DNA of 64,000 bases, from positions 2,304,001 to 2,368,000 of the forward strand of contig CBDCDC010000002.1 in the NCBI GenBank assembly GCA_965215195.1. Direction: 5' to 3'. Source of the stretch: Candidatus Latescibacterota bacterium (GTDB lineage: Bacteria > Latescibacterota > UBA2968 > UBA8231). Made by a program: the position numbers and the translations under genes. Every line of letters starts with the position of its first letter. Positions within the stretch are counted from its first letter, which is position 1. The notes beneath the pieces were generated by a model. That model made no database searches and was not told where the DNA came from. It was given only the letters and a program-made list of their open reading frames with translations. Shown in pieces: positions 3,241-64,000 of this stretch.

Positions 3241-3325
3241 GAGCGGCGCCTCTGCGCGTTGACTGGTTTACAACAAGGAGTTTAAGAAAAGGACTCAGTA
3301 CACGACACCTACGCGGTGCCTCAAC

Positions 3326-5125
3326 GTGAATCAAAACGCTCCCAACATCCATCCCCGCGAAGTGCGCCAAGCCCTCATGTGGTTTGCCGGCGTCCTGTGG
3401 CGCGGTGCGCCTTGGGCCATGGTCGCCAGCGTCTGCGGCCAATTCCTGCCGGCCTTTTTGCCGGCCGCGAGAATTTTGCTCATCAAAGAGCTAGTCGATG
3501 GCGTCCACGGTGTGTACGGCCAAGGAGCGGAGGGGTTTGCGGTCGTAGTACCGCTGCTAGCTTGGTTGGCTGGGCTGCGGCTGTTGGAGGCAATGCTCTC
3601 GGCGGTGCGGGGACACGCGGCGGCCGCGGTGCGGGAGAAGACGAGCTGGAAGTTGCAGGAGCGGGTGCTCGCGCAAGCGGCGCGGGTGGGGCTGGACGAG
3701 TTCGAGTATCGGGAATTTTTCGACCGCATGCAGCGGGCGCTGCGGGCGGCCTACTTTCGGGCTTACGGCATCTTCCGGGATGCGATGTCCACGCTCGAAA
3801 GCGCGATTGTGCTCTGCACCTTGATCGCGCTCTTTGCGACCGGGCACTGGTCGATCCCGGTGGTGCTGTTCTTGGGCACGGCCCCGGTTTTCTATACCCA
3901 AATGCGGCGCGGGCGCGAAATCTACGCGCTCTTCCACGAGCAGACGCCCGAGCAACGCCGCGCCGAGTATCTCGTGGGTTTGATGACCGATCGCGACGCC
4001 GCCAAGGAGATCCGGCTCTACGGGCTAGGCGCCTTCCTCTGCCGCACTTGGGAGGCCCTAGCGCAGACGCTCCGGCGGCAGCGCTTCGAGCTAACGCTAC
4101 AACAGCAGCGCTATTTGTTCGGCGGGCGGCTGAGTGGCATTAGTTCGGCGCTGTTGGCGCTGGTCATTCTGCTCTATCAGGCCGCCTATGGCGCCCTGAC
4201 CTTGGGGGGATTCTTCGCCTTGGCCGAGACCATCGTGCGCTTCCAAGGCACCCTCTTCCAAATGCTCCGGCAGATGGGCGATGTCTTTGAGCAGGCGCTC
4301 TACATCCGCGACTTGCGCTCGTTTGTGGAGTCGCCGACCGAGCAGGGAGCGGGATGGGAAAAGTTGCCCGAGCAGCCGCTGGACATCGCCGTTGAGGGGG
4401 TGGGGTTTGCCTACGGCGACGGGCCGCCGGTGCTCAACGGGGTCCAGCTGCGGCTCAGGCCCGGGGAGAAGCTAGCGTTGGTAGGTGTCAACGGAGCGGG
4501 CAAGACGACCTTGGTCAAGCTGCTCTTAGGGCTGTACCCGCCGGGCGAGGGCCGGGTGCTCTACAATGGAGTAGATGGACGCCGGATTGACCCGCAGGTA
4601 TTGCGGCGGCGCTGTGCGGCCGTCTTTCAGGACTTTGTGCAGTATCAGCGCACGGCGCGGGAGAATATCGGTTATGGGCAGGCCGAGGAACTGGGCGACC
4701 AAGCCCGGGTGGAGCGGGCGGCGCAGGCAGGCGGGAGTGCGCCGATAGTAGAGGCACTGGCCGCGCGCTACGACGCGACCTTGGGGCGCTACTTCGAGGG
4801 AGGACAGGACCTATCGCGCGGACAGTGGCAGAAGCTGGCGCTGTCGCGGGCCTATTTCCGCGACGCCCAGCTTCTGGTCTTTGACGAGCCGACGGCCGCG
4901 CTAGATCCGCGGGCCGAGTTGGAGGTCTTTCGCCAGTTTCGCGCCTTGAGCGCAGGCAAGTCGGCCGTTTTTGTCTCGCACCGCATGGCCTCGGCCCGGG
5001 TGGCCGACCGCATCCTCGTCTTGGATGGAGGCCGGGTATTGGAGGAGGGGACTCACGATGAGCTGATGGCGCGCGGGGGCGAATACGCGCGGATGTTTGC
5101 GCTGCAAGCACAGGGGTACCAATGA
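3326..5125 (+). CDS. ABC exporter, fused permease + ATPase
   Basis: TM N-half, Walker A GVNGAGKTT, signature LSRGQWQK, Walker B LLVFDEPT. Confidence 0.93.
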   Translation: MNQNAPNIHPREVRQALMWFAGVLWRGAPWAMVASVCGQFLPAFLPAARILLIKELVDGVHGVYGQGAEGFAVVVPLLAWLAGLRLLEAMLSAVRGHAAAAVREKTSWKLQERVLAQAARVGLDEFEYREFFDRMQRALRAAYFRAYGIFRDAMSTLESAIVLCTLIALFATGHWSIPVVLFLGTAPVFYTQMRRGREIYALFHEQTPEQRRAEYLVGLMTDRDAAKEIRLYGLGAFLCRTWEALAQTLRRQRFELTLQQQRYLFGGRLSGISSALLALVILLYQAAYGALTLGGFFALAETIVRFQGTLFQMLRQMGDVFEQALYIRDLRSFVESPTEQGAGWEKLPEQPLDIAVEGVGFAYGDGPPVLNGVQLRLRPGEKLALVGVNGAGKTTLVKLLLGLYPPGEGRVLYNGVDGRRIDPQVLRRRCAAVFQDFVQYQRTARENIGYGQAEELGDQARVERAAQAGGSAPIVEALAARYDATLGRYFEGGQDLSRGQWQKLALSRAYFRDAQLLVFDEPTAALDPRAELEVFRQFRALSAGKSAVFVSHRMASARVADRILVLDGGRVLEEGTHDELMARGGEYARMFALQAQGYQ

Positions 5126-51079: not shown

Positions 51080-52291
51080 ATGGCTGACCGCCCCAAAATC
51101 GCCGCCATCAGCACCATTTTCCACCAGTACTCCCACACCCAGCACATTGTCGACCGCTTCTTGGAAGGCTACGGCTGGAACGGCCGCCACCACCGGCCGG
51201 CCATGGACCTCGTCTCGCTCTACGTCGATCAGGTCAATCCCGACCCAGAGGCCGACCGCCCGGACCTGAGCCGCGACCGCGAAGCGCGCTTTCCCCAGCT
51301 AACGATCTACCCCACCGTCGCCGACGCCCTGACGCTGGGCGGCTCAACCCTCGCCGTCGATGGCGTCTTGCTCATCGGCGAGCACGGTTCCTATGGGCAC
51401 AACGAAAAGGGCCAGCACCTCTACCCGCGCTACGAGCTTTTCAAACAGATCGCCTCGGTCTATCGCACGACCGGCAAGAGCGCACCCGTGTTCAACGACA
51501 AGCATCTTTCTTGGAACTGGGAGTGGTGCCAAGAGATGTACGATATTTCGCACGAGCTCAATTTCGCCTTTATGGCCGGCTCTTCGCTGCCCGTTACTTG
51601 GCGCACCCCGTCGCTCGACATGCCCCTTGGTGCCGAGGTCGAAGAAGCCGTCTGCGTCTGCTATGGCGGCGTCGATAGCTACGACTTCCACGGGCTGGAG
51701 ACCTTGCAGTGCATGGTCGAGCGCAGAAAGGGCGGCGAGACCGGGGTCAAATGGCTCCGGGCCTACCGCGACGACAACTTCTGGCAAGCCCACGCCGAGG
51801 GCGCGTGGTCGCATGCGCTCTTTGCAGCCTGCCTCTGCCGCAGCCACACGCTCGCTCCGGCCAGACCCGGGTTCAACAATCCTTTCCCCACCATTGACGA
51901 ACTCAAGCACCTAGTCAAAAGCCCGGTCGCCTACCAGTACGAGCACACCGACGGCCTCCGCTCGACCATGATCCTGATGAACGGGCTAGTCGAGGATTTC
52001 AACTTCGCCGCTCGGCTCAAGGGACGGGACGAGCCGTTCTCGACCCAGATGTACTTGCCCATGCCCCCGGCCCGCACCACGCTCGCCAACTTCTTCAGCC
52101 CGCTGGTCAACAACATCGAGCAGATGTTCCTGAGCGGCCAAGCCACCTATCCGGTTGAACGCACCCTGCTCACTTCGGGCTTGGTCATCGCCGGCGTCGA
52201 TAGCCTCCAGCAAGATCAGACCCAAGTCGAGACGCCCCATCTAAACATCGCCTATCAGGCCACCGCAGAATCCACTTTCTGGACAACCTAG
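51080..52291 (+). CDS. Conserved hypothetical protein (distant oxidoreductase-like), paralog 1
   Basis: Shares SH.QH..DRFL.GY, IGEHG.Y, YPRYE, NDKHLS and AGSSLPVTWR with the next gene. Confidence 0.75.
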   Translation: MADRPKIAAISTIFHQYSHTQHIVDRFLEGYGWNGRHHRPAMDLVSLYVDQVNPDPEADRPDLSRDREARFPQLTIYPTVADALTLGGSTLAVDGVLLIGEHGSYGHNEKGQHLYPRYELFKQIASVYRTTGKSAPVFNDKHLSWNWEWCQEMYDISHELNFAFMAGSSLPVTWRTPSLDMPLGAEVEEAVCVCYGGVDSYDFHGLETLQCMVERRKGGETGVKWLRAYRDDNFWQAHAEGAWSHALFAACLCRSHTLAPARPGFNNPFPTIDELKHLVKSPVAYQYEHTDGLRSTMILMNGLVEDFNFAARLKGRDEPFSTQMYLPMPPARTTLANFFSPLVNNIEQMFLSGQATYPVERTLLTSGLVIAGVDSLQQDQTQVETPHLNIAYQATAESTFWTT

Positions 52292-52393: not shown

Positions 52394-53575
52394 ATGGCCA
52401 CCAAACGCATCGCCGTCATCGCTACCATCTACCGCTACCTGTCGCACGCCCAGCACTTTGCCGACCGCTTCTTAGTCGGCTATCCCTACGGCGGCCGCTG
52501 GCACCGCCCCGACTGCAAAATCGCATCGCTCTACGTGGATCAGCAACCCGAAGGCGACCAAAGCCAAGACCGAGCGCGCGAATTCGGCTTTGCCGTGTAC
52601 CCCACCATTGCCGAGGCCCTGCGCGGCGGCGGCGACGAGCTGGCTTGCGACGCAGTGCTGATCATTGGCGAGCACGGCGAGTACCCCAAAAACAACAAAG
52701 GACAAGTTCTGTACCCGCGCTACGAGTTCTTCAAAGAATGCGTCAAGGTCTTTGAACAAGACGGCCGCACCGCGCCCATCTACAACGACAAGCACCTGTC
52801 CTACAGCTTTGACAAGGCGCAAGAGATGATCGCCGACGGGCACCGGCTCGGCTTCCCGATCTTGGCCGGTTCTTCCCTGCCGGTCACTTGGCGTCTGCCC
52901 GATGTCGAGCTGCCCTTGGGGTGCCCGATCGAAGAGGCCCTGATGATCGGCTGCGGCGGCTCCGATCCCATGGACTACCACGCGCTAGAGGCCATGCAGT
53001 GCATGATTGAGCGTCGCGGCGGCGGCGAGACTGGCGTCAAATCCGTGCAATTGATCGAAGGAGACGACGTGTGGAAAGCCGGCGAGGAAGGGCGCTATTC
53101 GCTAAGACTGCTCGAATCCGCCCTCTCGCGCAGCGACACCCCCTGCGGCAAAACCGACGAGGACGGCCGCACCCAAGACCTGCTCGGCAACGGCGAGTTG
53201 CCCCGGCTCGTCAAAGAGCCAGCCGCGTACTTTATCGAGCACAACGACGGCCTCGAGACGACCCTCCTAATGCTCAACGGCGCCATCCGCGACTACTGCT
53301 TCGCCTGCCAGCTCGCCGGCGAAGACGATCCCATCTCGACCCAATTTTTCTTGCCGCCGACGCCCAACGTCACGTATTCGGCCTGTCTGGTCGCCAAGAT
53401 CTGGGAAATGATCGAGACCGGCCGCGCCCCCTTTCCCGCCGAGCGCACCCTAATCGTCAGCGGCGCGCTCGAAAGCTGCCTGACCTCCAAAGTGGAGGGC
53501 CACAAGCGGCTCGCAACGCCTCATCTCAAGGTGGAGTACCAAGCGCCAGCCGCATCGCATCACGGCCGCTTCTAG
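52394..53575 (+). CDS. Conserved hypothetical protein (distant oxidoreductase-like), paralog 2
   Basis: Full-length similarity to the preceding ORF. Confidence 0.75.
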   Translation: MATKRIAVIATIYRYLSHAQHFADRFLVGYPYGGRWHRPDCKIASLYVDQQPEGDQSQDRAREFGFAVYPTIAEALRGGGDELACDAVLIIGEHGEYPKNNKGQVLYPRYEFFKECVKVFEQDGRTAPIYNDKHLSYSFDKAQEMIADGHRLGFPILAGSSLPVTWRLPDVELPLGCPIEEALMIGCGGSDPMDYHALEAMQCMIERRGGGETGVKSVQLIEGDDVWKAGEEGRYSLRLLESALSRSDTPCGKTDEDGRTQDLLGNGELPRLVKEPAAYFIEHNDGLETTLLMLNGAIRDYCFACQLAGEDDPISTQFFLPPTPNVTYSACLVAKIWEMIETGRAPFPAERTLIVSGALESCLTSKVEGHKRLATPHLKVEYQAPAASHHGRF

Positions 53576-53791
53576 TCAGCGAAGTCAACGTGTTCATCAA
53601 TGGTTTCGCTTTGATACGCCGCACAATGCGATTCTTCCCGAAATAGCGAATGCCCATGCACGAGGCGTGTCGGTTGAAACCTTAGTCGAGCGCATACGCG
53701 ACTCGGTTACGACAAACTCACCTAGCTAGCCTTTGCAATGCTCTATCCGCCGACCGCACGGTCGGTACCTACAAACGAAAGGAAATATCCT

Positions 53792-54814
53792 ATGTCCACC
53801 ATCCCCACGCGCCCTTTGCGCACCGGCGTTGAGCTGAGCACACTCGGCTTTGGCGGTGCCCCTTTGGGCGAGCTTTTCGATCCGGTCAGCGAAACCCAAG
53901 CCCAAGACACCCTGCAAGCGGCTTGGAACGCCGGCATCCGCTACTACGACACCGCCCCGTTCTACGGCTACGGCAAAAGCGAGCACCGCCTCGGGCACTT
54001 TCTCCGCCAGCAGGAGCGCGGCGACTTCGTGCTCTCGACCAAAGTCGGCCGGGTGCTCACAGCCACCCGCGACCTCGATTCTTTTGCGAAGGGCTTCTGG
54101 ACCGGCGGCCTGCCCTTTGACTTCCGCTTTGACTACGGGTACGACGGCATCATGCGCTCGTGGGAAGACAGCTTGCAGCGGCTGAGCCTCAATTCCATTG
54201 ACCTGCTGTTGATCCACGACCTCGACAGCTTCTTCCACGACAGCGAGCAGCGCTTCTCCGCCCATCTCAACCGCCTAATCACCAGCGGCTGGCGCGCCCT
54301 CAACGAGCTGCGCTCCCACGGGCTGATCAAGGCCGTCGGCGCGGGTCTCAACCGCATGGGGGCCATGCCGCGCCTGCTCGACGGGGTTGATCTCGACTTC
54401 TGCATCGTCGCCATGCCCTATACGCTCTTGGACCAAGACTCCCTCGACGAGGAGTTCCCGCTCTGCCAAGAGCGCGACGTGCGCATTGTCATCGGCGCGG
54501 TCTTCGCTTCCGGCATCCTCGCCTCCGGCCCGGTCGAGGGTGCCCGCTATGCCTACGACACAGCCTCGCCCGAAATCCTCGCAAAGACCCGCCGCATCCA
54601 AGCCGTCTGCCAGCGGCACGACGTGCCCTTGCCGGCCGCCGCCATGCAGTTCCCGTTCGGGCATCCCCTCGTCGCGGCGATTATCCCGGGGGCGCAAACC
54701 CCGGCGCACATCGAGACCAACGCACAGTGGTTTCAGCACCCCATACCAACGGACCTGTGGGCCGAGCTAAAGGCCGAAGGGTTGCTGCGGGCAGACGCGC
54801 CGACTCCATCGTAG
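53792..54814 (+). CDS. Aldo/keto reductase (D-threo-aldose/L-fucose dehydrogenase-like)
   Basis: LGFGGAPLG, DTAPFYGYGKSE, STKVGR, SLQRL...IHD. Confidence 0.9.
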   Translation: MSTIPTRPLRTGVELSTLGFGGAPLGELFDPVSETQAQDTLQAAWNAGIRYYDTAPFYGYGKSEHRLGHFLRQQERGDFVLSTKVGRVLTATRDLDSFAKGFWTGGLPFDFRFDYGYDGIMRSWEDSLQRLSLNSIDLLLIHDLDSFFHDSEQRFSAHLNRLITSGWRALNELRSHGLIKAVGAGLNRMGAMPRLLDGVDLDFCIVAMPYTLLDQDSLDEEFPLCQERDVRIVIGAVFASGILASGPVEGARYAYDTASPEILAKTRRIQAVCQRHDVPLPAAAMQFPFGHPLVAAIIPGAQTPAHIETNAQWFQHPIPTDLWAELKAEGLLRADAPTPS

Positions 54815-54873: not shown

Positions 54874-57800
54874 ATGAACCTTGCGGCCCTGAGCCAGCAA
54901 AAGGCATTTGATCACATCCTCGGACAGCACTACACGGTCTTTGACGGGCTGTCCGGGATGCACGTGGAAGACATCTACCAAGACCGCCGCGGTCTTCTCT
55001 GGATCGCCACGGCCGACGGCGGCGTAAGCCGGTTCGACGGAGCGCACTTTGACACTCTTGGCCTGTCGAATGGGCTGCCCCATCTCACGGTAATGACCAT
55101 TGCCGAGGACCAAGACGGGCGACTGCTGTTCGGTACGTTAGGCGGCGGGCTGGCCGCATACGACGGGAGCGGCTTTCAGGTGTACACCACCGAACACGGG
55201 CTACCTTCCAACGAGATCCTGAGCTTGCAACCTCAAGCCGATGGCTCGATACGGATGCTGACCGGCGCAGGGATAGGCCGGTTTGCTGATGGCCAGTGCG
55301 TAGAGCGCGTGACAGAAATTGCGGGTCATCCGCTAGGAGCGGTGTACGACATAGCGACCGACGCGGCGGGTACGACGTGGCTGGCGACGCGGGAGCGAGG
55401 GGTTCTTAGCCTAGATGGTCGGCGCATAAGCACAGACTCAGGCGATGGGGATGGCTCAATGCAGTGGCCTTGGAAATTCGCCCAAGGCCCCTCCGGGCCT
55501 CTTTGGATCGCCTTTCGCTACGTTGGCACCGAACCCGTTATAGGCTGCTATGATCCAGACAGCAAACAGCTCGAACTCATCAAGGCGGGCGACCAAGCCG
55601 AGGAGGCGGAGGTCATACAGCACGGTACGCGGCATGTGCGCTTGGACGATAGAGGCTTGCTGTGGATGACCCGCCGGGGCGTACTGGTGTACGACGGACA
55701 GGCCTGGCATCCATTCTCCACCCGCTTGCCCGATAGCCACTTTTCGGATACGCGGCTGACGTACGAGGACCGCGAGGGGAATATCTGGTTGGGGCTTTGG
55801 GGCGGCGGGCTGGTTTTTTGCGATCCGGTCAGCGTCCAGCTCTACACCCAAGCCGACGGCCTACCCGACTGCGAGGTCCAGTGTCTGGGCGAAGACCGCG
55901 CAGAGCGGCTATGGATCGGTACGATGAGGGGCCTAGCCTGCCGCGAAGCCGACCGGATTCGCCCAGTAGATCCAAGGCGGGCGGTCTCAACTCTGGTGGT
56001 AGATCGGCAGGGACAGGTCTGGAGCGGAAGCCCCGAAGGACAGGTATTCAAAGAGACGGGTGGAGAAGCCCAAGCGATTGAGGGGGCCGAGACGATCCAC
56101 GCCGAAGCAATCGCGGGGCTGTGGGAAGACCCAGCAGGGTGCCTTAACGTCTGCACGTCCGCGGGACGATGGGGACGAATCGAAGAAGACCGCTTTATGG
56201 CACTTGAGGAACGGTTGCCCCACGATTGCACGGTCATGCTGTCGGATGGAGCAGGAACCCTCTGGATCGGCCTTAATAGGAAATCATCGGCCCTCTGCTA
56301 CTACAAAGACGGCCATTTCCACACGCCTAATATGGCCGGCGTGGAAGACATTGCGGAGGTGAGTGCTTTGTGCGAGTACCAAGGCATCCTCTGGGTAGGG
56401 ACCGAGAACCACGGCCTGTTCGCCTTAGACCACGCTTCCGCGGAGGTCCGCCGGTTTACGGTGGATCAGGGGGCGCTGTCCGTCAATGGCATCTTAGCTC
56501 TGGTGAACGATCCGCAAGGCGGTATGTGGATTGGGACCAGCGGCGGGGGCGTCCTGAAGTACGATGGCCAGCTCTTCCACTGCATCCGGCTGGGACAGGG
56601 AGCGTTGGAAAATATCGTCGAGGCCATTCTGCGCGATAGCCAAGGCCGGCTGTGGTTCGGGACGCGGGCCGGTCTCATTGCTTATCAGCCCGGGCAGACG
56701 CCGCCTCGCATCCTAATCCGCCAAGTCGTGGCCGGGCGGACTTGGGACGAACCCCAAGCCGTGTCCTGCCCGGATAGCACCCCCGAGATTCAGTTTCACT
56801 TCCAAGGCATCAGTTTCAGGAGCGGGGCCGAGCAGATGCGCTACAGCCATCGGCTCGTCGGCCGCGGCCTAGCAGAAGAGTGGAGTGCGTTCACGTCCGC
56901 CAATAGGGCGACGTACCAAGACGTGCCGGCCGGCCTGTTCCACTTTGAGGTGCGGACCATAGATCGGGATGGCTTGATGTCGGACGTAGCTCGCCTAAAG
57001 GTGCGAGTGGTCCCCACTCATCTCCGGCGCTCGGAGCAAATGCTGCGAGTCTCGAATCAGGGTTTTCTCAGCCAAAGTCCGGCCATGGCACGGCTCCTCG
57101 ATAAGATCGAGTCAATGGCCGCAACGGACCTGACGGTGCTGGTGCTGGGCGAGACCGGGGTCGGCAAGGGAGTGCTGGCGCGGATTCTCCACAACCTCAG
57201 CCCGCGCCAAGCAAAACCCTTTATACCTGTCAATTGCGCGGGCCTGTCCCCCGGGGTGATCGAAAGCGAACTGTTCGGCCACGAAAAGGGGGCCTTTACC
57301 AGCGCGAATGCCCGAAAGATCGGCTACTTTGAACGGGCCAATGGCGGCACCTTGTTCCTCGACGAGGTGGGCGATTTGCCTTCAGAGTCCCAACGGGTCT
57401 TGCTCCACATCTTGGAGGAGGGCCACCTGACGCGCGTCGGCGGCGAGAAGTCCATCCCCGTAGATGTGCGAGTCGTTGCTGCGACCAACAAGGTTCTAGA
57501 AGAAGCCATTCAGGCGGGGGCGTTCCGCGAGGACCTGTTCTATCGGCTGAGCGTACTCTCGGCAGTACTGCCGCCCCTGCGGGAGCGTCAGGAGGATATT
57601 CCGCTCTTGGCCGCTCATTTTGCGAGCCGATGTGCCGAACAGCTAGGGCGGCCGACGCCGGTTTTGAGCGAGGCCGCGGTGGCACGTTTGCAGCAATATG
57701 CGTGGCCGGGGAATGTGCGCGAATTGGAGCATATAATTCAGCAGGCGGTCGTGTTGGGCGACAGGTACGTCATTCAGGTGGCCGATGTGCCGCTTCAGGC

Positions 57801-58017
57801 TACCGAAGCGGAGCCTGCCCTGCCTGTTGAACAAGGTTTCGACGGGGATGCTGAAGATGAGGACGAAAAGCAGCGCATTTTGGCGGCCCTCCAAGCCACG
57901 AAATGGCGGGTCTATGGCCCGCGGGGAGCGGCTCAGTTGTTGGACATGGGCCCGGAGAAGCTGCGGTATCGAATGCGCAAGCACGGGTTGCAACGGCCAA
58001 AGAAGCGGTCGCAGTAA
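54874..58017 (+). CDS. sigma54-dependent activator (bEBP) with N-terminal Reg_prop beta-propeller and Y_Y_Y domains
   Basis: Repeats GL...V..I.QD..G.LWI.T, then [46 protein letters not shown] and a Fis-type HTH. Confidence 0.93.
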
Positions 58018-58071
58018 AAGATCGCGGATTAGAGGGGGTGCGGCTAATCTGTAAAAAGTCGTGCAAAAGTT

Positions 58072-58117
58072 GTGCAAAAGTCGTTCATTTGAACGGAAAT
58101 ATGAACGACTTTTGCAC
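58072..58117. promoter_or_regulatory. Candidate upstream activator sequence (perfect 17-bp inverted repeat)
   Basis: GTGCAAAAGTCGTTCAT-12 nt-ATGAACGACTTTTGCAC, with an extra GTGCAAAAGT direct copy at 58061. Confidence 0.7.
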
Positions 58118-58250
58118 GGAAAATCGTAGATCGACTTGCAACGCCATCTAATGATTGCCTTGCAGAGAGGTATTTCTCGCGATCTAACACCTTGTTTTTC
58201 AATCCTTTAGGTTCGTCCTAAAGGACTTTTTTTGTGCCTGACCTGATCGT

Positions 58251-58266
58251 TGGCACACAACTTGCA
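58251..58266 (+). promoter_or_regulatory. sigma54 (-24/-12) promoter
   Basis: TGGCAC-ACAAC-TTGCA, an exact consensus match, 50 bp upstream of the A24 peptidase ATG and downstream of a bEBP gene. Confidence 0.9.
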
Positions 58267-58316
58267 TTATATCGTCGTTGAAGGCGAAACCTCCTCTACC
58301 ATGAGGCGTAACGGAT

Positions 58317-59435
58317 ATGGAAGCGCTACTCAATGATTTTGGCCGCGTGTTTGCGTTGGAGCTACTGATGGTCTGTGCTCTTACCATCTGCGGTTGCTAT
58401 ACGGTCTATACGGATATTCACTTCCGCCATATCCCCAATGGGGCGAGTTGGGGCCTAGTGGCCGTAGGGTTGGTCGGCCAAGGTTTATTCTGGCTGTGGG
58501 GAGCGGTCGAACTGGAGCAGGCCGGCCTCGTCTTTTTGGTCGGTTTTGCCGTTAGTTACGCCCTCTATATCTATGGATTCTGGGCGGCAGGCGACGCCAA
58601 ATTGTTTTGGGCTTTTGTCTTGGTGCTGCCGCCGACGTGCTTCTCTTCCCCTTCCCTTTCCTCGTTTAACGCGCCGATTTGGGCCCTGCTGCTCAACGCG
58701 TTCGTGCTCACCTGTTTTGTCTTGCTGGTCTTGTGGGCGATGTTGCGTCGAGGTCGGTCCGCGGAAGCCACGGTGGATTGGGACGCCTCGCAAGGGCTGT
58801 CTCTCGGCTTGGAGTTGGCCGGCCTGATCGGGCTGGTGCTGGGTTTGGGCTCCTTCCTGCTGGGAGAGGCAATGACCTTTGTCGAGGTCGTGGTCGCTGT
58901 CCTCGTACTCTATCTACTCGTTGACCGCTTCGTGCCCCGGCGTTACCGGCTGACCTTGGCCCTGCCCGGTCTGATCTTAGGCGGCTACACGGCCTTGGCA
59001 TCTGGAGACTGGCCGATCTATCTGGTGCTGTGGATCGTCTCTTGGGGGGCGTTCTTCCTCTACCATATCATCCGGCATCTAGCTCCTCGGTCCTTCGTAC
59101 AGGTGCTGCCCATTCAGGCGTTGCGCCAAGGCATGGTGCCGCGTCTGGCGATCTATGCGGCGGATAGAGGAGGGGCCTACCGTTGTGGCGCAGAAGTCGG
59201 GCAAGAGCAGGACGTGCTGTGTCATCCCGGCCGGCCGTTGACGAAGGGGCACGTGCGGACGTTGCACGAAAAATCGGCGGGCGGTGCTTTCGCGCCATTT
59301 GGCAATGAGTTGGCAGTGGAACTGGCCGTCCCATTCGCGCCGATAATCGCTGTCGCTGGGGTGTTGACGGTGGTCTTGGGCGGGAGTCTGATCCAACCAT
59401 TGATCCAGCTATTCTCGCCGTGGCTGCGGTCTTAG
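58317..59435 (+). CDS. A24 (prepilin/preflagellin-type) GxGD aspartic peptidase with extended membrane C-terminus
   Basis: YTDIHFRHIPN and WAAGDAK carry the catalytic Asp residues. C-terminal L..GMVP and PFAP motifs. Confidence 0.82.
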   Translation: MEALLNDFGRVFALELLMVCALTICGCYTVYTDIHFRHIPNGASWGLVAVGLVGQGLFWLWGAVELEQAGLVFLVGFAVSYALYIYGFWAAGDAKLFWAFVLVLPPTCFSSPSLSSFNAPIWALLLNAFVLTCFVLLVLWAMLRRGRSAEATVDWDASQGLSLGLELAGLIGLVLGLGSFLLGEAMTFVEVVVAVLVLYLLVDRFVPRRYRLTLALPGLILGGYTALASGDWPIYLVLWIVSWGAFFLYHIIRHLAPRSFVQVLPIQALRQGMVPRLAIYAADRGGAYRCGAEVGQEQDVLCHPGRPLTKGHVRTLHEKSAGGAFAPFGNELAVELAVPFAPIIAVAGVLTVVLGGSLIQPLIQLFSPWLRS

Positions 59436-59445
59436 GGGGCTAACG

Positions 59446-60063
59446 ATGAATCGGGATAGAAAAGACCCTGTGACGATGGCCTTTGGCGTCTTGTTGGTCG
59501 CCTTGCTGCCGACCTTTTTCCTGTTGGCGAGCCGCTATCAGTCGCTCGACGAGCGCATGCGGCAGTTGCAGCCGAAGCCCTTTGTACCCGCGCCTTCCCC
59601 GGAGGACCTGTTGGCGCAAGTAAGCCACGTCGTATCCGACAGTACGCTCCATCTCCAACCGGTCTGGGCTGCCGAGCCGGAACCGACTTCTGGCCTCGTG
59701 GCCGACTACCAAGTCATGCGCGGCGACGAGGCGGTCTATCGGCTGGTGCTGTTCCGCTACGACATCGCTTGTCGTGTGTGCCGGGACGTGCTGGCTGCCG
59801 CCCTGTACGAGGGCGACACACTGGCGCAGATCCTCCTGCTCGACGAGTGGGAGGTGCGCGGCGAGCGGGTGGATACGGCGCGTTTTTTGCGCCAATTCGC
59901 CGGTCGCTTGATGGCGGAGGAACTGGCGCTTGAGTCCAATGTCGATGGAATCAGCGGAGCCACGTTTTCAACCGGGGGCTTGGTCGAACAGCTCAACACA
60001 GCCGCGGCGTGGGTGCGGGAGCATCCGCTGGAGACGCCTGCAAGCGAGGAGAAACGACTGTGA
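59446..60063 (+). CDS. Membrane-anchored FMN-binding (flavinylation motif) protein with CxxC
   Basis: N-terminal TM, CRVC, and VDGISGATFST (DGxSGAT). Confidence 0.78.
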   Translation: MNRDRKDPVTMAFGVLLVALLPTFFLLASRYQSLDERMRQLQPKPFVPAPSPEDLLAQVSHVVSDSTLHLQPVWAAEPEPTSGLVADYQVMRGDEAVYRLVLFRYDIACRVCRDVLAAALYEGDTLAQILLLDEWEVRGERVDTARFLRQFAGRLMAEELALESNVDGISGATFSTGGLVEQLNTAAAWVREHPLETPASEEKRL

Positions 60064-60599
60064 ACGCTCTCAGACCCACTCGCGGGGCTACGACCTTGAT
60101 TGTGGCCACGGGCGTCCTGTTGGGAGCCTGTACTTTCTTGGCGGCCAAGATCGTCAACCCCCCTCCCATTGATCCGCTCGATGTGGAGTTTTGGGATTTG
60201 CTGGGCACGCAAGCGGCTATACTGGAATTAGAAGATCTGGCGGGCACGGGCACGGTTTCTAACGCGCAGTTTGTGAACCAGCCCTATTTGATCATTTTCG
60301 CCGACTCTGAATGCAGTGCCTGCGAGAGCATCTATCCCCACCTGCTGCGCGCCTCGCAGGTACAGGGGGTGAATGTCCTGTTGATTGCCTCGGGCGACCG
60401 GCCGGCGATGCACGACAAAATGGAGGAACACAGTTTTGCGTTCCCCGTCGCCTTTGATTCCCTGTTGACGGCGAATGCGCCCTTTGAAGTAAAGGCTTTT
60501 CCGGCCTCCGTATTGGTGGATGCCGAAGGCAACATTGCCAAAGCCGCTACCGGTGACCAGACCGCCATAGCCGTAATACGCTTGGCTGGAAGGTCCTGA
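60060..60599 (+). CDS. Membrane-anchored thioredoxin-fold redoxin (TlpA/ResA-like)
   Basis: CSAC, FPVAFD, cis-Pro loop FPASVLVD. GTGA overlap with the upstream gene. Confidence 0.82.
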   Translation: MNALRPTRGATTLIVATGVLLGACTFLAAKIVNPPPIDPLDVEFWDLLGTQAAILELEDLAGTGTVSNAQFVNQPYLIIFADSECSACESIYPHLLRASQVQGVNVLLIASGDRPAMHDKMEEHSFAFPVAFDSLLTANAPFEVKAFPASVLVDAEGNIAKAATGDQTAIAVIRLAGRS

Positions 60600-60614
60600 A
60601 AGGATGAATGCACC

Positions 60615-61181
60615 ATGCAATATGTAACGCTCTTGCGTCGTCCGGTGGTGTGGACGGTGATGGCCTGTGCCGCAGTCGTGCTCTTTTTGGCGTTGCGTCC
60701 CTCTTCGTCGGCCATCTCGCCCGTGGTCTGGACCGAGCCATCGGCCAACCCTCTGTCCAAGGTGCTGCGATCGGGGGATGCTGCGCCGGACTTCGCGCTG
60801 CCGGCCGTGCAGGGTGGCGTTGTAGCATTGAGTGCGTTGCAGGGAAAGTCCGCCCTGCTCGCCTTTGTTACGGCGGAATGTCCCTATTGTCAGAAATTAA
60901 ACAAGGAACTCGAAGCCTTTGAACTGAACGCGGATCAACAACTCGTGTTCATCTGCACCGGGGAGGAGGGGGCGCGGAAGATTAGCGAGACCTATTCCTT
61001 TACGTACCCGGTGTTAATTGACTCGGCTGGCGCAGTCTCACAGGCGTACAAGACCCCCGGGGTGCCTACGGTGTATCAGATCGATACCGAGGGGACGGTG
61101 GTGGACTTCGTGTTGGGGTGGCCGCCGGCTTGGGAGTTTGTGCGGGGTTTTGGCCGCGCCCAGCCGAGCGAAGGCTCTTGA
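60615..61181 (+). CDS. Membrane-anchored thioredoxin-fold redoxin (TlpA/ResA-like)
   Basis: GDAAPDFAL, CPYC, YPVLID, GVPTVYQID. Confidence 0.88.
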   Translation: MQYVTLLRRPVVWTVMACAAVVLFLALRPSSSAISPVVWTEPSANPLSKVLRSGDAAPDFALPAVQGGVVALSALQGKSALLAFVTAECPYCQKLNKELEAFELNADQQLVFICTGEEGARKISETYSFTYPVLIDSAGAVSQAYKTPGVPTVYQIDTEGTVVDFVLGWPPAWEFVRGFGRAQPSEGS

Positions 61182-61228
61182 GGTAATTAGCTCAATGACC
61201 ACTACGGCCCAGAAAGGAGGTGTATCCC

Positions 61229-61312
61229 GTGCTCGCAGGTTTGATGCCAAGTCAGCGACCACAACGGTTCGCTGATCCTTTTCCGACCCTTTTGAGGAGA
61301 AATGCATTATGA
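61229..61312 (+). CDS. Putative 27-aa leader ORF coupled to the Cys-rich peptide gene
   Basis: Strong SD AAAGGAGGTG at 61213-61222, then GTG. Its TGA overlaps the ATG at 61309. Confidence 0.4.
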   Translation: MLAGLMPSQRPQRFADPFPTLLRRNAL

Positions 61313-61635
61313 AGTCCTTAACGTTTGTTTTCGAGGCGACGCTGCTGGCCCCGCTGGTGGAGTTCGCCACGTCGACCAGCGGCCACGTTGAGCCGCGTCA
61401 GGGCTTGGCCTTGGGGTGGTTGGGCAGCGTGGTGGCCGGGCTGGCGGTGGTGTTCGGCACGGCCGACCAGGCGCAGGCCGATCCCTGCAACGAAGGCTGG
61501 CACTGCTCCAACGATATGTGCGACTGGGATCACCATGGAAACCCCATAGCGGCGTATGACAAGAAATGGGTTCACCATCCTAATGACCCCCCTGGATGCG
61601 TAAGCACGGCAAGGGCCTGTACCTGTCCTCCGTAA
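61309..61635 (+). CDS. Secreted six-cysteine peptide precursor
   Basis: GAGGAG RBS, 57-aa leader with a hydrophobic core ending AQA, and a 51-aa core with 6 Cys, 5 His and 3 Trp. Confidence 0.75.
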   Translation: MKSLTFVFEATLLAPLVEFATSTSGHVEPRQGLALGWLGSVVAGLAVVFGTADQAQADPCNEGWHCSNDMCDWDHHGNPIAAYDKKWVHHPNDPPGCVSTARACTCPP

Positions 61636-61703
61636 TCTACCATCCGGATATATCGCGGCTGTCCAAATAGGAGGATGGTTCTGCGGTAAGTGCTGAGAGG
61701 TAT

Positions 61704-61742
61704 AGCCCCTGTGGCACTCTAGGGCCGGGTGCCACAGGGGCT
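61704..61742 (+). terminator. Strong stem-loop downstream of the peptide gene
   Basis: AGCCCCTGTGGCAC / GTGCCACAGGGGCT, a perfect 14-bp stem with only a weak T tail. Confidence 0.6.
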
Positions 61743-61829
61743 GGTTATCCTCTGGTCTGCGGAGTCTGTCGTATCATAGAGGTAGAGCATTCGCTCGACT
61801 AACATTCTTCCCCATGCTGGAGGTGCATT

Positions 61830-64000
61830 ATGCGCTGCTTGCTGATTGCGATTGGATTACTATCGGCTCCGCTGGGAGCTTTCGCCCTAACGTGGGATTT
61901 TGACGAGGGGACAACTTGGGGCTGGACCGCCTACGAGAGTGAATTAAACTTCGGCAATCTTAATCCCACCACGGTGTACAGCGAAGTCGAAGATGGTATC
62001 TGGCGCATTGCGCCGGTGCTAAACGGACAGATACCGGCCATTCGCTTGCTCTCGCCGCTGATTGGGGAGGACTCGGCCTTGTTCGACCGGGTCACCCTCC
62101 GGCTGCGTATCATCCATAATCGCCCCACCGGGGGAACCCTCCTGATGGCGTGGTCCAATGGCGAATCCCGACGCCGCAAGCAGGAAGCGGGCCAACTTGG
62201 AAGCCGGTCGGAGTTTTATACGGGCCGTTATCAACTGTATCCCATCGAATGGGAAAATATCACGATAGATATTCGCGCCTTGGAAGCCGGTTTGGAAGCC
62301 AGACAAGAAGAGCCGATTGCGACCATTTGGGCGGATACCTCGATAGTTTGGCAGGACACTCTCTTCCACTTGCAATTAGACCTAAACTTGAACCATAACC
62401 CCGAGGGTCCGGCCGATCATCCTGAGTTTGTCGAAGTCGATTGGATTCAACTGACGGGGGCTGAAGAGTTGCTGTTCGGGGAATTGCAGCCCCGGGCGAT
62501 CGCCAAGGCTGGGTTGCCCGGGGCGTTGTTTGCCGAACCGCGTTTTTCTGCTTTGGGTCCGGGTATCGGTAGCTTAGAATCGCAAGGTACTTTGGGCGAT
62601 GTAGATGGCGATGGCGATGCCGACTTGGTGGTGGTCTGGACCCACGACACGGTCGTCAAAGTGACCGAAGGGACGTTTGAGAGGACGACCCAAGCGGGCT
62701 GGACGGTCGCGTCCAGCGACGGGTTGGGCGGCTTGGGTCCCACCCGAGAGGTGCTCCGCGGAGGCGAGCCCCTCATGGGCATTGCGGGGGACGACTTCAA
62801 CGGGGATGGACTGCTTGATCTGGCCTTTCGTGATGGTCGGACCCTCGAATTGTGGCTCAACCGGGGCGAGGATGGCTTTGAAACCATCCTCCAGCTATCC
62901 GACGTGTGGTTCGAGGGCTTAGCCGATGGCGATGGCGATGGCGATGTGGACCTGTTGGTCTGGGAGTTCGCCGACCGATTCCACCTACTAGAGTCGCAGG
63001 TGATTATGTGGATCAATGACGGCGCGGCCGGGTTTGCCCACCGCGATCGGTTCGTCCTCGACACCGAAGAAGACCTCCGTGCTTTCCTGCTGGCCGGGCA
63101 ACCGGAGGGCGAGGCCGTGCGCCTGTTGTGGTCCCGACCGTCCTGCAAGCCTGGGGGGACTTTACGGCTGACCCAGCCGTGGGCGGCCAGCGAGCAGTCT
63201 CCGCTGTTTTTTGACGCCCCGCTCAATCCCTGCGACCTGCACCTGCTCACCGATCTGGACGGGGATGGGGCGGTGGAGTTGGTTGGGACACCCGAGCGGA
63301 ATCTATACTTCGACTTTGATGTTCTCACCACCTACCACGGTTTGGCGTTGTGGCGAGTGGACGCTTCGGGCGGGGTGGAACGCCACGACCTGCTCGGTCC
63401 GCAGGTGCTTCTGCCGGATCCGTATTTTGATGATGGGGTCCTTGCCCGCGACCTGACTGGCGATGGCCTGCTGGACTTGGCCGTAGTGGATGTCAACCCG
63501 GCGACGGGGCCGGCGCTGGTGGTGCTGGTCGGCCAGCGCGATGGGGTGCCCGTCGTCGAGGGGCGCTATCCGCTGCCGGGCGTGGGCGCCGAAGTGCTCG
63601 CCGGCGATGTCAACGGCGATGGGGCTGTTGATCTGGTGGTGTTGGGCAGGAGTGTGGAAGGGGGCGATGGCGGGGCCTTCGTCTTTCTCAATCAAAGCGT
63701 CCCGGCCACTGCTATCGCGGCCGAGACGACGGCGACGCCCGCAACATTTGCGTTAGGTGCCAACTATCCCAACCCGTTCAATCCGGCTACGACGATCCCC
63801 GTATCGGTGGCGGGTGCGGGCGACGTGGCCGTAACCATCTACAACGTCTTGGGGCAGCCGGTGCGCGCGGTGTGGAACGGTCCGTTGGCGGCGGGCGAGC
63901 ATCGGCTGACGTGGGATGGCCGAGACGGGCAGGGGCAATCCGTCGCCGCCGGAGTCTATCTGGTGCGGCTGCACCAAGGCGACCACACGCGCCTCCGCAA
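61830..64000 (+). CDS. Secreted FG-GAP/VCBS-repeat protein with C-terminal FlgD-Ig/T9SS-A-like sorting domain, 3'-partial
   Basis: Absent from the ORF track because it runs off the window. GGAGG RBS, signal peptide MRCLLIAIGLLSAPLGAFA, several GDVDGDGDADL-type repeats, and NYPNPFNP...IYNVLGQ.VR...WDGRD...GVYLVRL in the same frame. Confidence 0.88.
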   Translation, partial: MRCLLIAIGLLSAPLGAFALTWDFDEGTTWGWTAYESELNFGNLNPTTVYSEVEDGIWRIAPVLNGQIPAIRLLSPLIGEDSALFDRVTLRLRIIHNRPTGGTLLMAWSNGESRRRKQEAGQLGSRSEFYTGRYQLYPIEWENITIDIRALEAGLEARQEEPIATIWADTSIVWQDTLFHLQLDLNLNHNPEGPADHPEFVEVDWIQLTGAEELLFGELQPRAIAKAGLPGALFAEPRFSALGPGIGSLESQGTLGDVDGDGDADLVVVWTHDTVVKVTEGTFERTTQAGWTVASSDGLGGLGPTREVLRGGEPLMGIAGDDFNGDGLLDLAFRDGRTLELWLNRGEDGFETILQLSDVWFEGLADGDGDGDVDLLVWEFADRFHLLESQVIMWINDGAAGFAHRDRFVLDTEEDLRAFLLAGQPEGEAVRLLWSRPSCKPGGTLRLTQPWAASEQSPLFFDAPLNPCDLHLLTDLDGDGAVELVGTPERNLYFDFDVLTTYHGLALWRVDASGGVERHDLLGPQVLLPDPYFDDGVLARDLTGDGLLDLAVVDVNPATGPALVVLVGQRDGVPVVEGRYPLPGVGAEVLAGDVNGDGAVDLVVLGRSVEGGDGGAFVFLNQSVPATAIAAETTATPATFALGANYPNPFNPATTIPVSVAGAGDVAVTIYNVLGQPVRAVWNGPLAAGEHRLTWDGRDGQGQSVAAGVYLVRLHQGDHTRLR

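Follow-up and report, generated by a model that had tools for sequence, protein, structure and literature searches.

A family A24 peptidase, the kind of enzyme that processes class III signal peptides, is encoded in a bacterium without detectable pilus genes, beside genes for a flavin protein, two thioredoxin-fold proteins and a small cysteine-rich peptide. What such a peptidase might act on, and what might hold these genes together, are the questions raised by a locus of a Candidatus Latescibacterota bacterium, studied here in a window of 64,000 nucleotides (the whole stretch of DNA analysed; positions 2304001-2368000 of contig C2 of the source genome, G000, which is 95.2% complete). From position 54874 to the window end, the list of open reading frames (ORFs) holds seven closely spaced ORFs on the + strand, all in the same direction. 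They encode a sigma-54 activator of the bacterial enhancer-binding protein (bEBP) type, the A24 peptidase, a protein with a flavin mononucleotide (FMN)-binding domain and a CxxC motif (FMN/CxxC protein), two redoxins (Trx1 and Trx2), a precursor peptide with six cysteines and an FG-GAP/VCBS protein with a type IX secretion system (T9SS) tail. It is probable that these genes form a self-contained pathway, switched by sigma-54, for the maturation and export of small secreted Cys-rich proteins that belong to a multigene family. An initial annotation of the same DNA had read it as a sigma-54-controlled operon dedicated to the processing and oxidative folding of a disulfide-rich secreted peptide; the features that it listed were all recovered at their places on the + strand by ORF, Pfam/NCBIfam and motif checks, and its end point at 64000 had to be moved, since the operon continues past the window with further repeated pairs of peptide and FG-GAP/T9SS genes.

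One line of evidence for a functional unit is that the genes travel together. In type 1 loci, which are about 80% identical, the order is (bEBP)-A24-FMN-Trx1-Trx2-peptide-FG-GAP, and in type 2 loci, about 40% identical, it is peptide-FG-GAP-(Cys-rich T9SS protein)-FMN-A24-Trx1-Trx2; more distant arrangements (Trx-A24-peptide and FMN-Trx-Trx-A24-peptide) also occur. Among 23 Latescibacterota loci with a full-length A24 gene of this subfamily, several of which share a genome and are not independent, a leader-bearing Cys-rich ORF (leader profile E < 0.01) is present in 21; the other two, L043 and L044, are truncated where their contigs end. All 23 encode Trx1, with Trx2 in 20, the FMN/CxxC protein in 18, the FG-GAP protein in 17 and an adjacent bEBP in 13. 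None of these genes is held by any of five loci from other phyla with a distant long A24 gene. At the level of genomes, a single A24 protein was used as query in G000 and 40 relatives (41 kin genomes, again not independent), so that distant A24 forms may escape; 15 of the 41 are A24-positive, and leader matches are found in 15/15 of these and the FMN/CxxC protein in 14/15 (the miss, G007, is an assembly of 340 contigs). The FMN/CxxC protein is found in only 2 of the 26 A24-negative genomes (G027 and G033). G000 itself carries a second type 1 cluster (C2:2766027-2780000), in which FMN, Trx1 and Trx2 are 94-96% identical to those of the window and which has its own -24/-12 promoter and three leader genes.

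Both the co-occurrence of the genes and a Cys-rich small ORF in homologous operons had been named as points on which the initial annotation could fail, and on both it held; together with gene fusions that tie the redox genes (described below), they support its reading of a dedicated pathway. It could be argued that the genes are neighbours by chance, or by regulation only, and that the small ORF is spurious. With the set preserved at about 40% identity under two different gene orders, and also in variants that are more distant, with 184 homologues of the small ORF that share a conserved leader, and with redox genes fused elsewhere, such an explanation is scarcely credible.

The precursor peptide is a 108-aa ORF with six Cys (61309..61635), which matches no Pfam or NCBIfam family and whose 184 homologues, of 59-189 aa, are all unnamed. 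Its first 58 residues form a leader (61309-61482) with the pattern EFxxSxSGxxxxRxGLxLGW, a hydrophobic segment and AQA↓D, followed by the core (61483-61632). Among 40 sequences that represent four operon types, the leader residues F19, S24 and G25 never vary, and E18, S22, R30, G32, L33, L35, G36 and W37 are nearly invariant. Mean pairwise identity among 121 type 1 members (7260 pairs) is 84.5% for the leader and 35.7% for the core. A conserved leader, a variable core and processing genes alongside are what is expected of a precursor resembling ribosomally synthesised and post-translationally modified peptides (RiPPs), and the layout fits the term 'RiPP-like' used in the initial annotation; that the leader and not the core is conserved, and that G000 has at least 12 leader-bearing genes, goes beyond it. 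Each of the 12 leader matches in this genome is followed by Cys-rich sequence. The Cys count is even (4, 6 or 8) in 111/121 type 1 cores, which fits full disulfide pairing, and the cores also keep His residues (DHxGN and YxH). The system is best seen as a leader-guided maturation of peptides that draws on unexpected families of enzymes. The clusters nearest to the peptide in the ESM Atlas are hypothetical proteins of 89-92 aa, mostly from Candidatus Poribacteria, with scores of 0.84 and 0.78 (mark 0.9), and serve only as a lead to comparable small proteins in another phylum.

The peptidase (372 aa; 58317..59435) belongs to family A24 by sequence, motifs and fold. It scores 30.7 bits against PF01478 (gathering cut-off 26.5), a domain that is precomputed on 40/51 of the A24 homologues listed. 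The catalytic residues are D33 and D93 (AAGDAK, the GxGD type), and a PFAP motif lies towards the C-terminus; D33, G92, D93, K95 and F340 (of PFAP) are invariant in 25 sequences, and D33 and G92-D93-x-K95 also in a set of nine. An AlphaFold model (predicted local distance difference test, pLDDT, 75.6) aligned in an exhaustive VIA search with FlaK (3s0x_B) over 166 residues within model range 12-364 (Z 12.9, root-mean-square deviation 3.5 A). FlaK is the single VIA match with Z >= 8, the next having Z 6.7, and a Foldseek comparison of the model with PDB gave no match at E <= 0.001. The protein is set apart by four additional helices and a small beta-rich domain, inserted at residues ~157-336, and residues 140-340 match no Pfam family at E up to 10. 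Distant long A24 proteins (24-26% identity, 390-490 aa) are encoded on contigs of Myxococcales/Deltaproteobacteria metagenome-assembled genomes (L058, L059, L062 and L071), directly downstream of two or three ORFs with an N-terminal CxxxCxxC resembling that of radical SAM enzymes; this neighbourhood may represent another peptide-maturation system.

Enzymes of family A24 are expected beside machinery for type IV pili, Tad pili, type II secretion (T2SS) or archaella, and in G000 such a context was not found. A search of the whole genome revealed neither a T2SSE ATPase (PF00437) nor an N_methyl pilin motif (PF07963), and PF01478 has two matches only, the gene in the window and its type 2 paralogue. 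Pilus genes, whose absence from the operon the initial annotation had noted, were thus not found genome-wide either. The peptidase is accordingly left without a recognised conventional substrate, and the co-inherited leader becomes the obvious candidate. Class III signal peptides are defined by a basic leader, Gly at -1, a hydrophobic stretch from +1 and often Glu at +5. In the leader family, G25, the sole invariant Gly, and the near-invariant R30-x-G32 ahead of L and further hydrophobic residues recall part of this plan, but Glu at +5 and a net positive charge are missing. G32 (RQG↓L) stands immediately before the hydrophobic stretch, with a basic residue at its -3 position. A complex of A24 with leader residues 1-58 was predicted with a score of 0.58, the best of three controls reaching 0.01, and three runs shared at least 95% of contacts, with a partner pLDDT of at least 67. 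In calibration, the mark was reached by 58/80 solved complexes and 2/110 mismatched pairs, and at scores of 0.60 or less by seven of the 80 solved complexes and both of the mismatches that passed, so that the prediction lends the pairing weak support.

A substrate with a Gly followed by a hydrophobic helix, served by an A24 enzyme, recalls pilins, and the small disulfide-bonded head of the peptides adds to a resemblance to Flp and type IV pilins. The peptides might be pilin-like subunits that keep the helix after the A24 cut and either assemble or remain anchored as a surface structure. In G000, neither the ATPase nor the N_methyl motif that such a structure would call for was detected; moreover, an AxA site is conserved after the helix, position +5 is not Glu, and those variants that combine Cys-rich repeats with a T9SS tail must pass through the periplasm in soluble form. 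We regard pilin-like subunits as very unlikely, and proceed with the peptides as secreted, leader-bearing proteins.

The FMN/CxxC protein (205 aa; 59446..60063) contains the motif DGISGAT, with T173 as the candidate flavinylation site; the family form is DGI[ST]GAT, which agrees with the motif D-G-x-[ST]-G-A-[ST] defined in passages of PMC8238504 and PMC10339131. It has just two cysteines, C109 and C112, which form a CxxC (CRVC). In 11 sequences of the family, R104, D106, I107, C109, C112, R113, D114 and D167-G168-x-x-G171-A172-T173 are invariant. The copy in the window scores 18.6 bits against FMN_bind (PF04205; cut-off 22), over its last 25 residues only, and relatives in loci L080 and L090 reach 23.3 bits. 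A family profile searched against 1.84 billion representatives gave 887 matches at E <= 0.001. About 30 of these are full-length members, the distant family representatives that were read keep the CxxC, and the other matches are genuine multi-FMN_bind proteins, reached with E down to ~1e-36 and confirmed by Pfam in three cases (240-481 bits). A sequence-profile search of PDB gave nothing significant (best E 0.25 and 1.5). The structural model (pLDDT 79.9) consists of an N-terminal helix and a beta-sheet/helix domain, and its top 15 Foldseek matches are all RnfG or NqrC (E from 2.4e-4). Judged by motif, profile and fold, the flavoprotein is predicted to be an N-terminally anchored relative of FMN_bind, even though the copy in the window falls below the cut-off. 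Among the metagenomic loci scanned with the family, most hold ordinary FMN_bind genes, and 5/80 have the CxxC form. One further protein (P0194), considered as a fusion of Trx and CxxC-FMN, was dropped, since its Redoxin score of 16.9 bits is below the cut-off and BLAST against Trx2 was not significant.

Two observations bear on how this protein could work. An ApbE flavin transferase is encoded in G000 (273.9 bits; 0.6 Mb from the operon), and in L080 the CxxC-FMN_bind gene adjoins ApbE (242.5 bits); FMN may be attached covalently to T173. In addition, the CxxC of the model lies in a loop (residues 106-114) between strands 95-105 and 115-122. In the solved FMN_bind domains described in passages of PMC10339131, this loop joins strands 1 and 2 and contributes the Tyr that stacks on the isoalloxazine. 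When the profile is aligned with canonical domains, the alignment begins at the Asp after the CxxC, and its ungapped extension therefore sets the aromatic residue of G-F/Y-x-G between the two Cys; the CxxC may thus occupy the flavin-stacking position.

Trx1 (CSAC) and Trx2 (CPYC) each have one N-terminal hydrophobic segment and exceed the Pfam cut-offs for AhpC-TSA (34.2 and 62.4 bits) and Redoxin (27.9 and 52.0 bits). Trx2 occupies 60615..61181. The ORF of Trx1, which ends at 60599, is open from 60009, and its start is most likely GTG 60060, because this codon overlaps the stop of the FMN gene as GTGA and is preceded by GAGGAG; the distances A24-FMN, FMN-Trx1 and Trx1-Trx2 are then 10, -4 and 15 nt. 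CxAC is found in 22/26 Trx1 homologues. Among 24 Trx2 homologues, 18 have CPYC or CPHC alone, one has CLAC plus CGYC and five are without CxxC. Neither protein can be assigned to a named NCBIfam equivalog: they score 39.2 and 51.5 bits for ResA (cut-off 170) and 32.6 and 29.0 bits for MauD (188.6), and the best scores for StoA, DsbE and PedC/BrcD are 35.1 (210), 15.6 (123) and 17.1 (Trx2; 120). A role in cytochrome c maturation was ruled out, since the products are without CxxCH and the ResA and DsbE scores are below cut-off, and maturation of methylamine dehydrogenase was ruled out by the MauD scores; no family of either process appears among the Pfam/NCBIfam matches of the operon products. 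The motif scan found neither CxxCH nor CxxxCxxC in the seven products, in agreement with the earlier statement that no cytochrome c is encoded. A peroxiredoxin role was excluded by the CxxC motifs together with the membrane anchors, and no Erv/ALR family is among the Pfam matches of the operon products listed at E up to 0.01.

That the three redox proteins act as one unit is supported by their occurrence elsewhere in one polypeptide. In L077 (556 aa) and L090 (468 aa) a single ORF encodes CxxC-FMN_bind behind two AhpC-TSA/Redoxin domains (109.5 and 134.5 bits). The neighbours of the L090 fusion (1712-3962) are a YHS-domain gene (43.4 bits) and a PepSY_TM fragment of low score (22.8 vs 28.8 bits), which hints at a link to metal and at a membrane electron partner in that lineage.

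The trio could either make disulfides or reduce them. A whole-genome search of G000 found neither DsbB nor VKOR, and its only DsbD_TM gene lies more than 1 Mb from the operon. Across the 41 genomes, DsbB/VKOR above cut-off is found in 0/16 of those positive for FMN/CxxC and in 6/25 of those negative for it, a pattern that is only a hint, because neither was found in 19 of the genomes and all of them are related. Once reduced, an FMN_bind protein is quick to react with O2 (passages of PMC10339131), and O2 is the probable electron acceptor if the trio works oxidatively. Alternatively, the trio could run reductively, with the flavoprotein drawing on a membrane donor to keep Trx1 and Trx2 reduced, so that they isomerise wrong disulfides in the manner of DsbD-DsbC proofreading or hold thiols available for metal. 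Flavinylated proteins usually move electrons outwards, as described in passages of PMC8238504, and the nearest named relatives of Trx1 and Trx2, though far below cut-off, are ResA, MauD and StoA; the conserved His residues of the type 1 cores are compatible with metal binding, and the neighbours of the L090 fusion point the same way. Set against this, the operon has no DsbD/CcdA, PepSY_TM or NapH-like donor module, the initial formation of disulfides needs some source where no DsbB/VKOR was found, and the even Cys counts of the cores fit full pairing. A reductive trio is on balance unlikely, and oxidation is taken as the direction in what follows.

The last gene of the window (61830..64000, ending 19 nt past it) encodes the FG-GAP protein, which has FG-GAP_3 (59.7 bits) and the T9SS sorting domain TIGR04183 (30.3 bits vs cut-off 23); its residues 1-230 match no Pfam family at E up to 10. 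PorU is present in G000 (628.6 bits vs 420), so that both a sorting domain on the protein and T9SS machinery in the genome are in place, as expected of a T9SS cargo. Tandem modules of peptide and FG-GAP genes follow one another in G000, the window's own being succeeded by those at C2:2368146 and 2370993, just beyond the window end. Some leader proteins, of 255-339 aa, carry repeated Cys-rich modules and a T9SS-type C-terminal domain of their own, with FlgD_ig above the cut-off and Por_Secre_tail below it. Neither the pairing of peptides with FG-GAP/T9SS proteins in tandem modules nor the T9SS tails of leader proteins had been part of the initial annotation. Export of the peptides with, or through, a T9SS partner is accordingly a plausible last step. 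G000 has about 35 paralogues of the ~730-aa FG-GAP protein, in four regions around leader genes, a very large expansion, and the C-terminal region of the PorU model (T9SS sorting-type domain) has matches in at least 50 of its ORFs.

Between the peptide and FG-GAP genes lies a GC-rich hairpin (61704..61742, + strand) with a perfect stem of 14 bp (61704-17/61729-42). The 195-nt spacer with its hairpin recurs in four G000 modules, with one compensatory change from C-G to A-T. As an intrinsic terminator the hairpin was rejected, since no T-run follows the stem; it is probably an element of mRNA processing, stability or attenuation.

Expression of the operon appears to be under the control of the adjacent bEBP (1047 aa; 54874..58017). 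Its AAA+ domain scores 216.4 bits against Sigma54_activat, with a GAFTSA loop at residue 806, its sensor is an N-terminal Reg_prop/Y_Y_Y propeller and HTH_8 is also present. No hydrophobic segment was detected in the protein, which is therefore taken to be cytoplasmic. With rpoN in G000 (200.5 bits), the parts of a sigma-54 regulon are complete: an AAA+ activator with a GAFTGA-type loop, a -24/-12 promoter and the sigma factor. The 300 nt between the bEBP and A24 genes hold repeats, an AT hairpin and the promoter. The enhancer-like site (58054..58118), about 135-200 nt upstream of the promoter, comprises three direct repeats with 11-nt spacing (58054-87) and perfect 17-nt inverted-repeat arms at 58072-88 and 58101-17. 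At equal distance, related loci have two to five tandem palindromes of 16-17 bp in three sequence classes (GTGCAAAAGT..., ATACGGAAAATCGTAT and CCACGGAAAAGTCGTGG, in the site of the window and the equivalent sites of L030-L047). The existence of three classes points to a divergence among bEBP paralogues in the DNA that they recognise, so that the clusters of one genome could be switched separately.

Downstream of the enhancer-like site and upstream of the -24 element, TCCTTTAGG-N5-CCTAAAGGA-CTTTTTTT (58203..58235, + strand) forms a terminator-like hairpin with a T-run. An AT block, TTTTTCAATCCTTTAGG-N5-7-CCTAAAGGATTTTTTTGTGC, stands at the matching place in 16/18 promoter regions, R2 and L035 having other AT-rich sequence there. 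With one mismatch, it resembles the consensus of integration host factor (IHF). The block may be terminator-like, an IHF-like bend site, or both. The promoter itself, TGGCACACAACTTGCA (58251-58266, + strand), lies 51 nt upstream of the A24 start codon. The initial annotation had called it a consensus -24/-12 promoter. TGGCAC-N5-TTGC (58251-65) is the sole exact match in the 64-kb window, but with one mismatch allowed there are six matches where 5.15 are expected, so that the motif alone is not beyond chance. Conservation in orthologues, and not the motif count, is what carries the assignment: the element is at the matching place in 7/8 type 1 orthologous loci, and in type 2 loci it lies upstream of the peptide gene, the first gene there. 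Sequence conservation thus indicates that the promoter architecture is real, and the promoter is predicted to be active.

A bEBP sensor without a membrane segment must sense something cytoplasmic, and this bears on another view of the peptidase. A24 enzymes, presenilin and signal-peptide peptidase (SPP) share the GxGD mechanism. A24 could act like an SPP, with signal peptidase I cutting first at the AxA site and A24 then clearing the leftover leader or freeing its n-region as a feedback signal for the bEBP. An AxA site is indeed conserved after the hydrophobic region, conservation within the leader is highest in the n-region, and leader proteins occur in genomes without an A24 match. No A24 enzyme is known to act as an SPP, and the bEBP is adjacent in just 13/23 loci; an SPP-like role is quite unlikely. 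Where A24 cuts in class III style, as is preferred here, the piece of leader that it releases may also act as a feedback signal to the cytoplasmic propeller-bEBP.

Upstream of the bEBP gene, the window contains, by eye, two ORFs of 403 and 393 aa (51080-52291 and 52394-53575, + strand) that are alike from the N-terminus and look like tandem paralogues, followed by an ORF resembling aldo/keto reductases (53738-54814).

Put together, the pathway would run as follows. The cytoplasmic propeller-sensor bEBP would bind the tandem palindromes and activate the -24/-12 promoter. The precursor would be made with an extended signal peptide, composed of a cytoplasmic n-region (EFxxSxSGxxxxRxG), a membrane h-region and an AxA site, ahead of the hypervariable core with 4, 6 or 8 Cys. 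The FlaK-like A24 enzyme would recognise the n-region and cut at the cytoplasmic face in class III style, either after G32 (RQG↓L) or after G25. In the periplasm, the anchored Trx1 (CxAC) and Trx2 (CPYC) could then swap disulfides with the core and be recycled by the anchored FMN_bind protein, flavinylated by ApbE and with its CxxC placed against the flavin. The trio would in this case be a split analogue of a Trx-Trx-flavin sulfhydryl oxidase, from which electrons probably end on O2. The folded peptide would finally exit by its own T9SS tail or together with the neighbouring FG-GAP/T9SS protein.

Several observations weigh against this scheme. With regard to the leader, canonical class III features are lacking, namely Glu at +5 and a net positive charge of the n-region; the AxA site is like that of signal peptidase I, so that A24 cleavage would be dispensable for release, and the score of the predicted A24-leader complex lends weak support. 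With regard to gene content, 5/23 loci are without FMN/CxxC, the second type 1 cluster of G000 retains only a 56-residue A24 fragment, and that cluster is either served in trans or decaying. Leader matches are also found in 5/26 A24-negative genomes (G011, G022, G024, G027 and G029). One of these, G022, is a single contig with three leader proteins of 282-334 aa and no A24 or FMN/CxxC matches, and it speaks against the idea that each leader protein depends strictly on this pathway. With regard to redox chemistry, all 11 members of the flavoprotein family match FMN_bind weakly (best E 5e-4), the operon encodes no partner that could donate or accept electrons, and the large share of genomes with neither DsbB/VKOR nor FMN/CxxC makes the complementary pattern a weak one.

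In its fullest form, the proposal is that a pilus-independent A24 enzyme is dedicated to a new class of extended signal peptide, the mark of a diversifying family of secreted Cys-rich mini-proteins, and that a covalently flavinylated FMN_bind domain, with a CxxC in place of its flavin-stacking loop, makes periplasmic disulfides de novo and supplies Trx partners, as a bacterial, non-homologous counterpart of QSOX in lineages where no DsbB or VKOR was found. We advance this conjunction tentatively and with more doubt than confidence. If the reading were right, the leader would define the first substrate class of bacterial A24 enzymes unrelated to pili or secretion pseudopili, and a new sorting or leader motif by which hundreds of unannotated small ORFs could be recognised in Latescibacterota metagenomes. 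It would also offer a candidate answer to a long-standing gap, namely how bacteria in which no DsbB/VKOR is detected form periplasmic disulfides: a compact flavin-CxxC protein with two thioredoxin partners, fused elsewhere in one polypeptide. With an FG-GAP/T9SS surface protein paired to every one of them, the hypervariable cores and their many disulfides would amount to a natural library of stable mini-proteins, with possible roles in competition, adhesion, host interaction or metal binding.

Several known systems invite comparison. Like TlpA/ResA/CcmG and MauD, Trx1 and Trx2 are anchored redoxin-fold CxxC proteins, as used for specific periplasmic clients; they differ in scoring far below the equivalog cut-offs and in standing in an operon whose products are without CxxCH. 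Disulfide-containing class II bacteriocin systems with accessory thioredoxins of the PedC/BrcD type have a conserved leader, a variable Cys core, a dedicated leader peptidase and a thioredoxin-fold protein. The likeness to this layout lies in a leader/core precursor encoded with a peptidase and a Trx-fold protein, whereas the peptidase here is of family A24 and not a C39 ABC transporter, the leader has no double glycine, and export appears to proceed by Sec and T9SS.

Archaeal PibD also processes sugar-binding proteins that are not pilins. In comparison with class III processing by A24 enzymes (PilD, TadV/CpaA, FlaK and PibD), the present enzyme agrees in its Pfam score, both Asp motifs, PF(A/G)P and the FlaK fold, and its candidate substrate in a conserved Gly ahead of a hydrophobic helix. 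It differs in that no pilin, ATPase or platform genes were found in the genome and in the four extra helices and beta domain of the enzyme; the leader, moreover, has 20-32 residues, neither basic character nor Glu at +5, and an AxA site behind it, and the cargo is hypervariable and Cys-rich.

The full-text literature searched yielded no description of such a system, although the supplementary cluster tables of PMC8238504, which lie outside that search, could hold the cluster type. The nearest published cluster type, judged from passages of that paper (Meheust et al. 2021, PMC8238504), is a hybrid of DsbD, DUF3570, a Trx-like protein and DUF4266. In its main text the terms 'A24' and 'CxxC' are absent, and the occurrence of 'peptidase' shown there is in a reference title. 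The hybrid resembles the present locus in combining an extracytosolic flavinylated protein with thioredoxin-like proteins and a small Cys-motif protein; on the evidence of those passages, it differs in having DUF3570 and DsbD, in place of which the locus has FMN_bind, no DsbD, and A24 with a leader-bearing hypervariable cargo. The common ground is only the mixing of flavinylated and thioredoxin-like carriers.

RnfG and NqrC share with the flavoprotein an N-terminal anchor helix, the FMN_bind domain, DGxSGAT and the fold, but the operon has no Rnf or Nqr partner subunits, the NCBIfam RnfG models score only 22.1 and 16.1 bits (cut-offs 205 and 230), and the aromatic stacking loop is replaced by an invariant CxxC. 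In their putative mode of action, finally, the redox proteins resemble the flavin-dependent sulfhydryl oxidases QSOX (Trx-Trx-Erv/FAD), Erv/ALR and Ero1: there too, two Trx-fold CxxC modules are combined with a flavin module that has a CxxC beside the isoalloxazine, a placement predicted for the present protein, and in L077 and L090 the Trx-Trx-flavin order is fused as well. There is no homology between the two, the module here being a presumed covalent-FMN FMN_bind domain of RnfG/NqrC fold and not the FAD helical bundle of Erv/ALR, and the system here is bacterial, periplasmic and membrane-anchored, so that the likeness is one of putative mode of action and not of membership.

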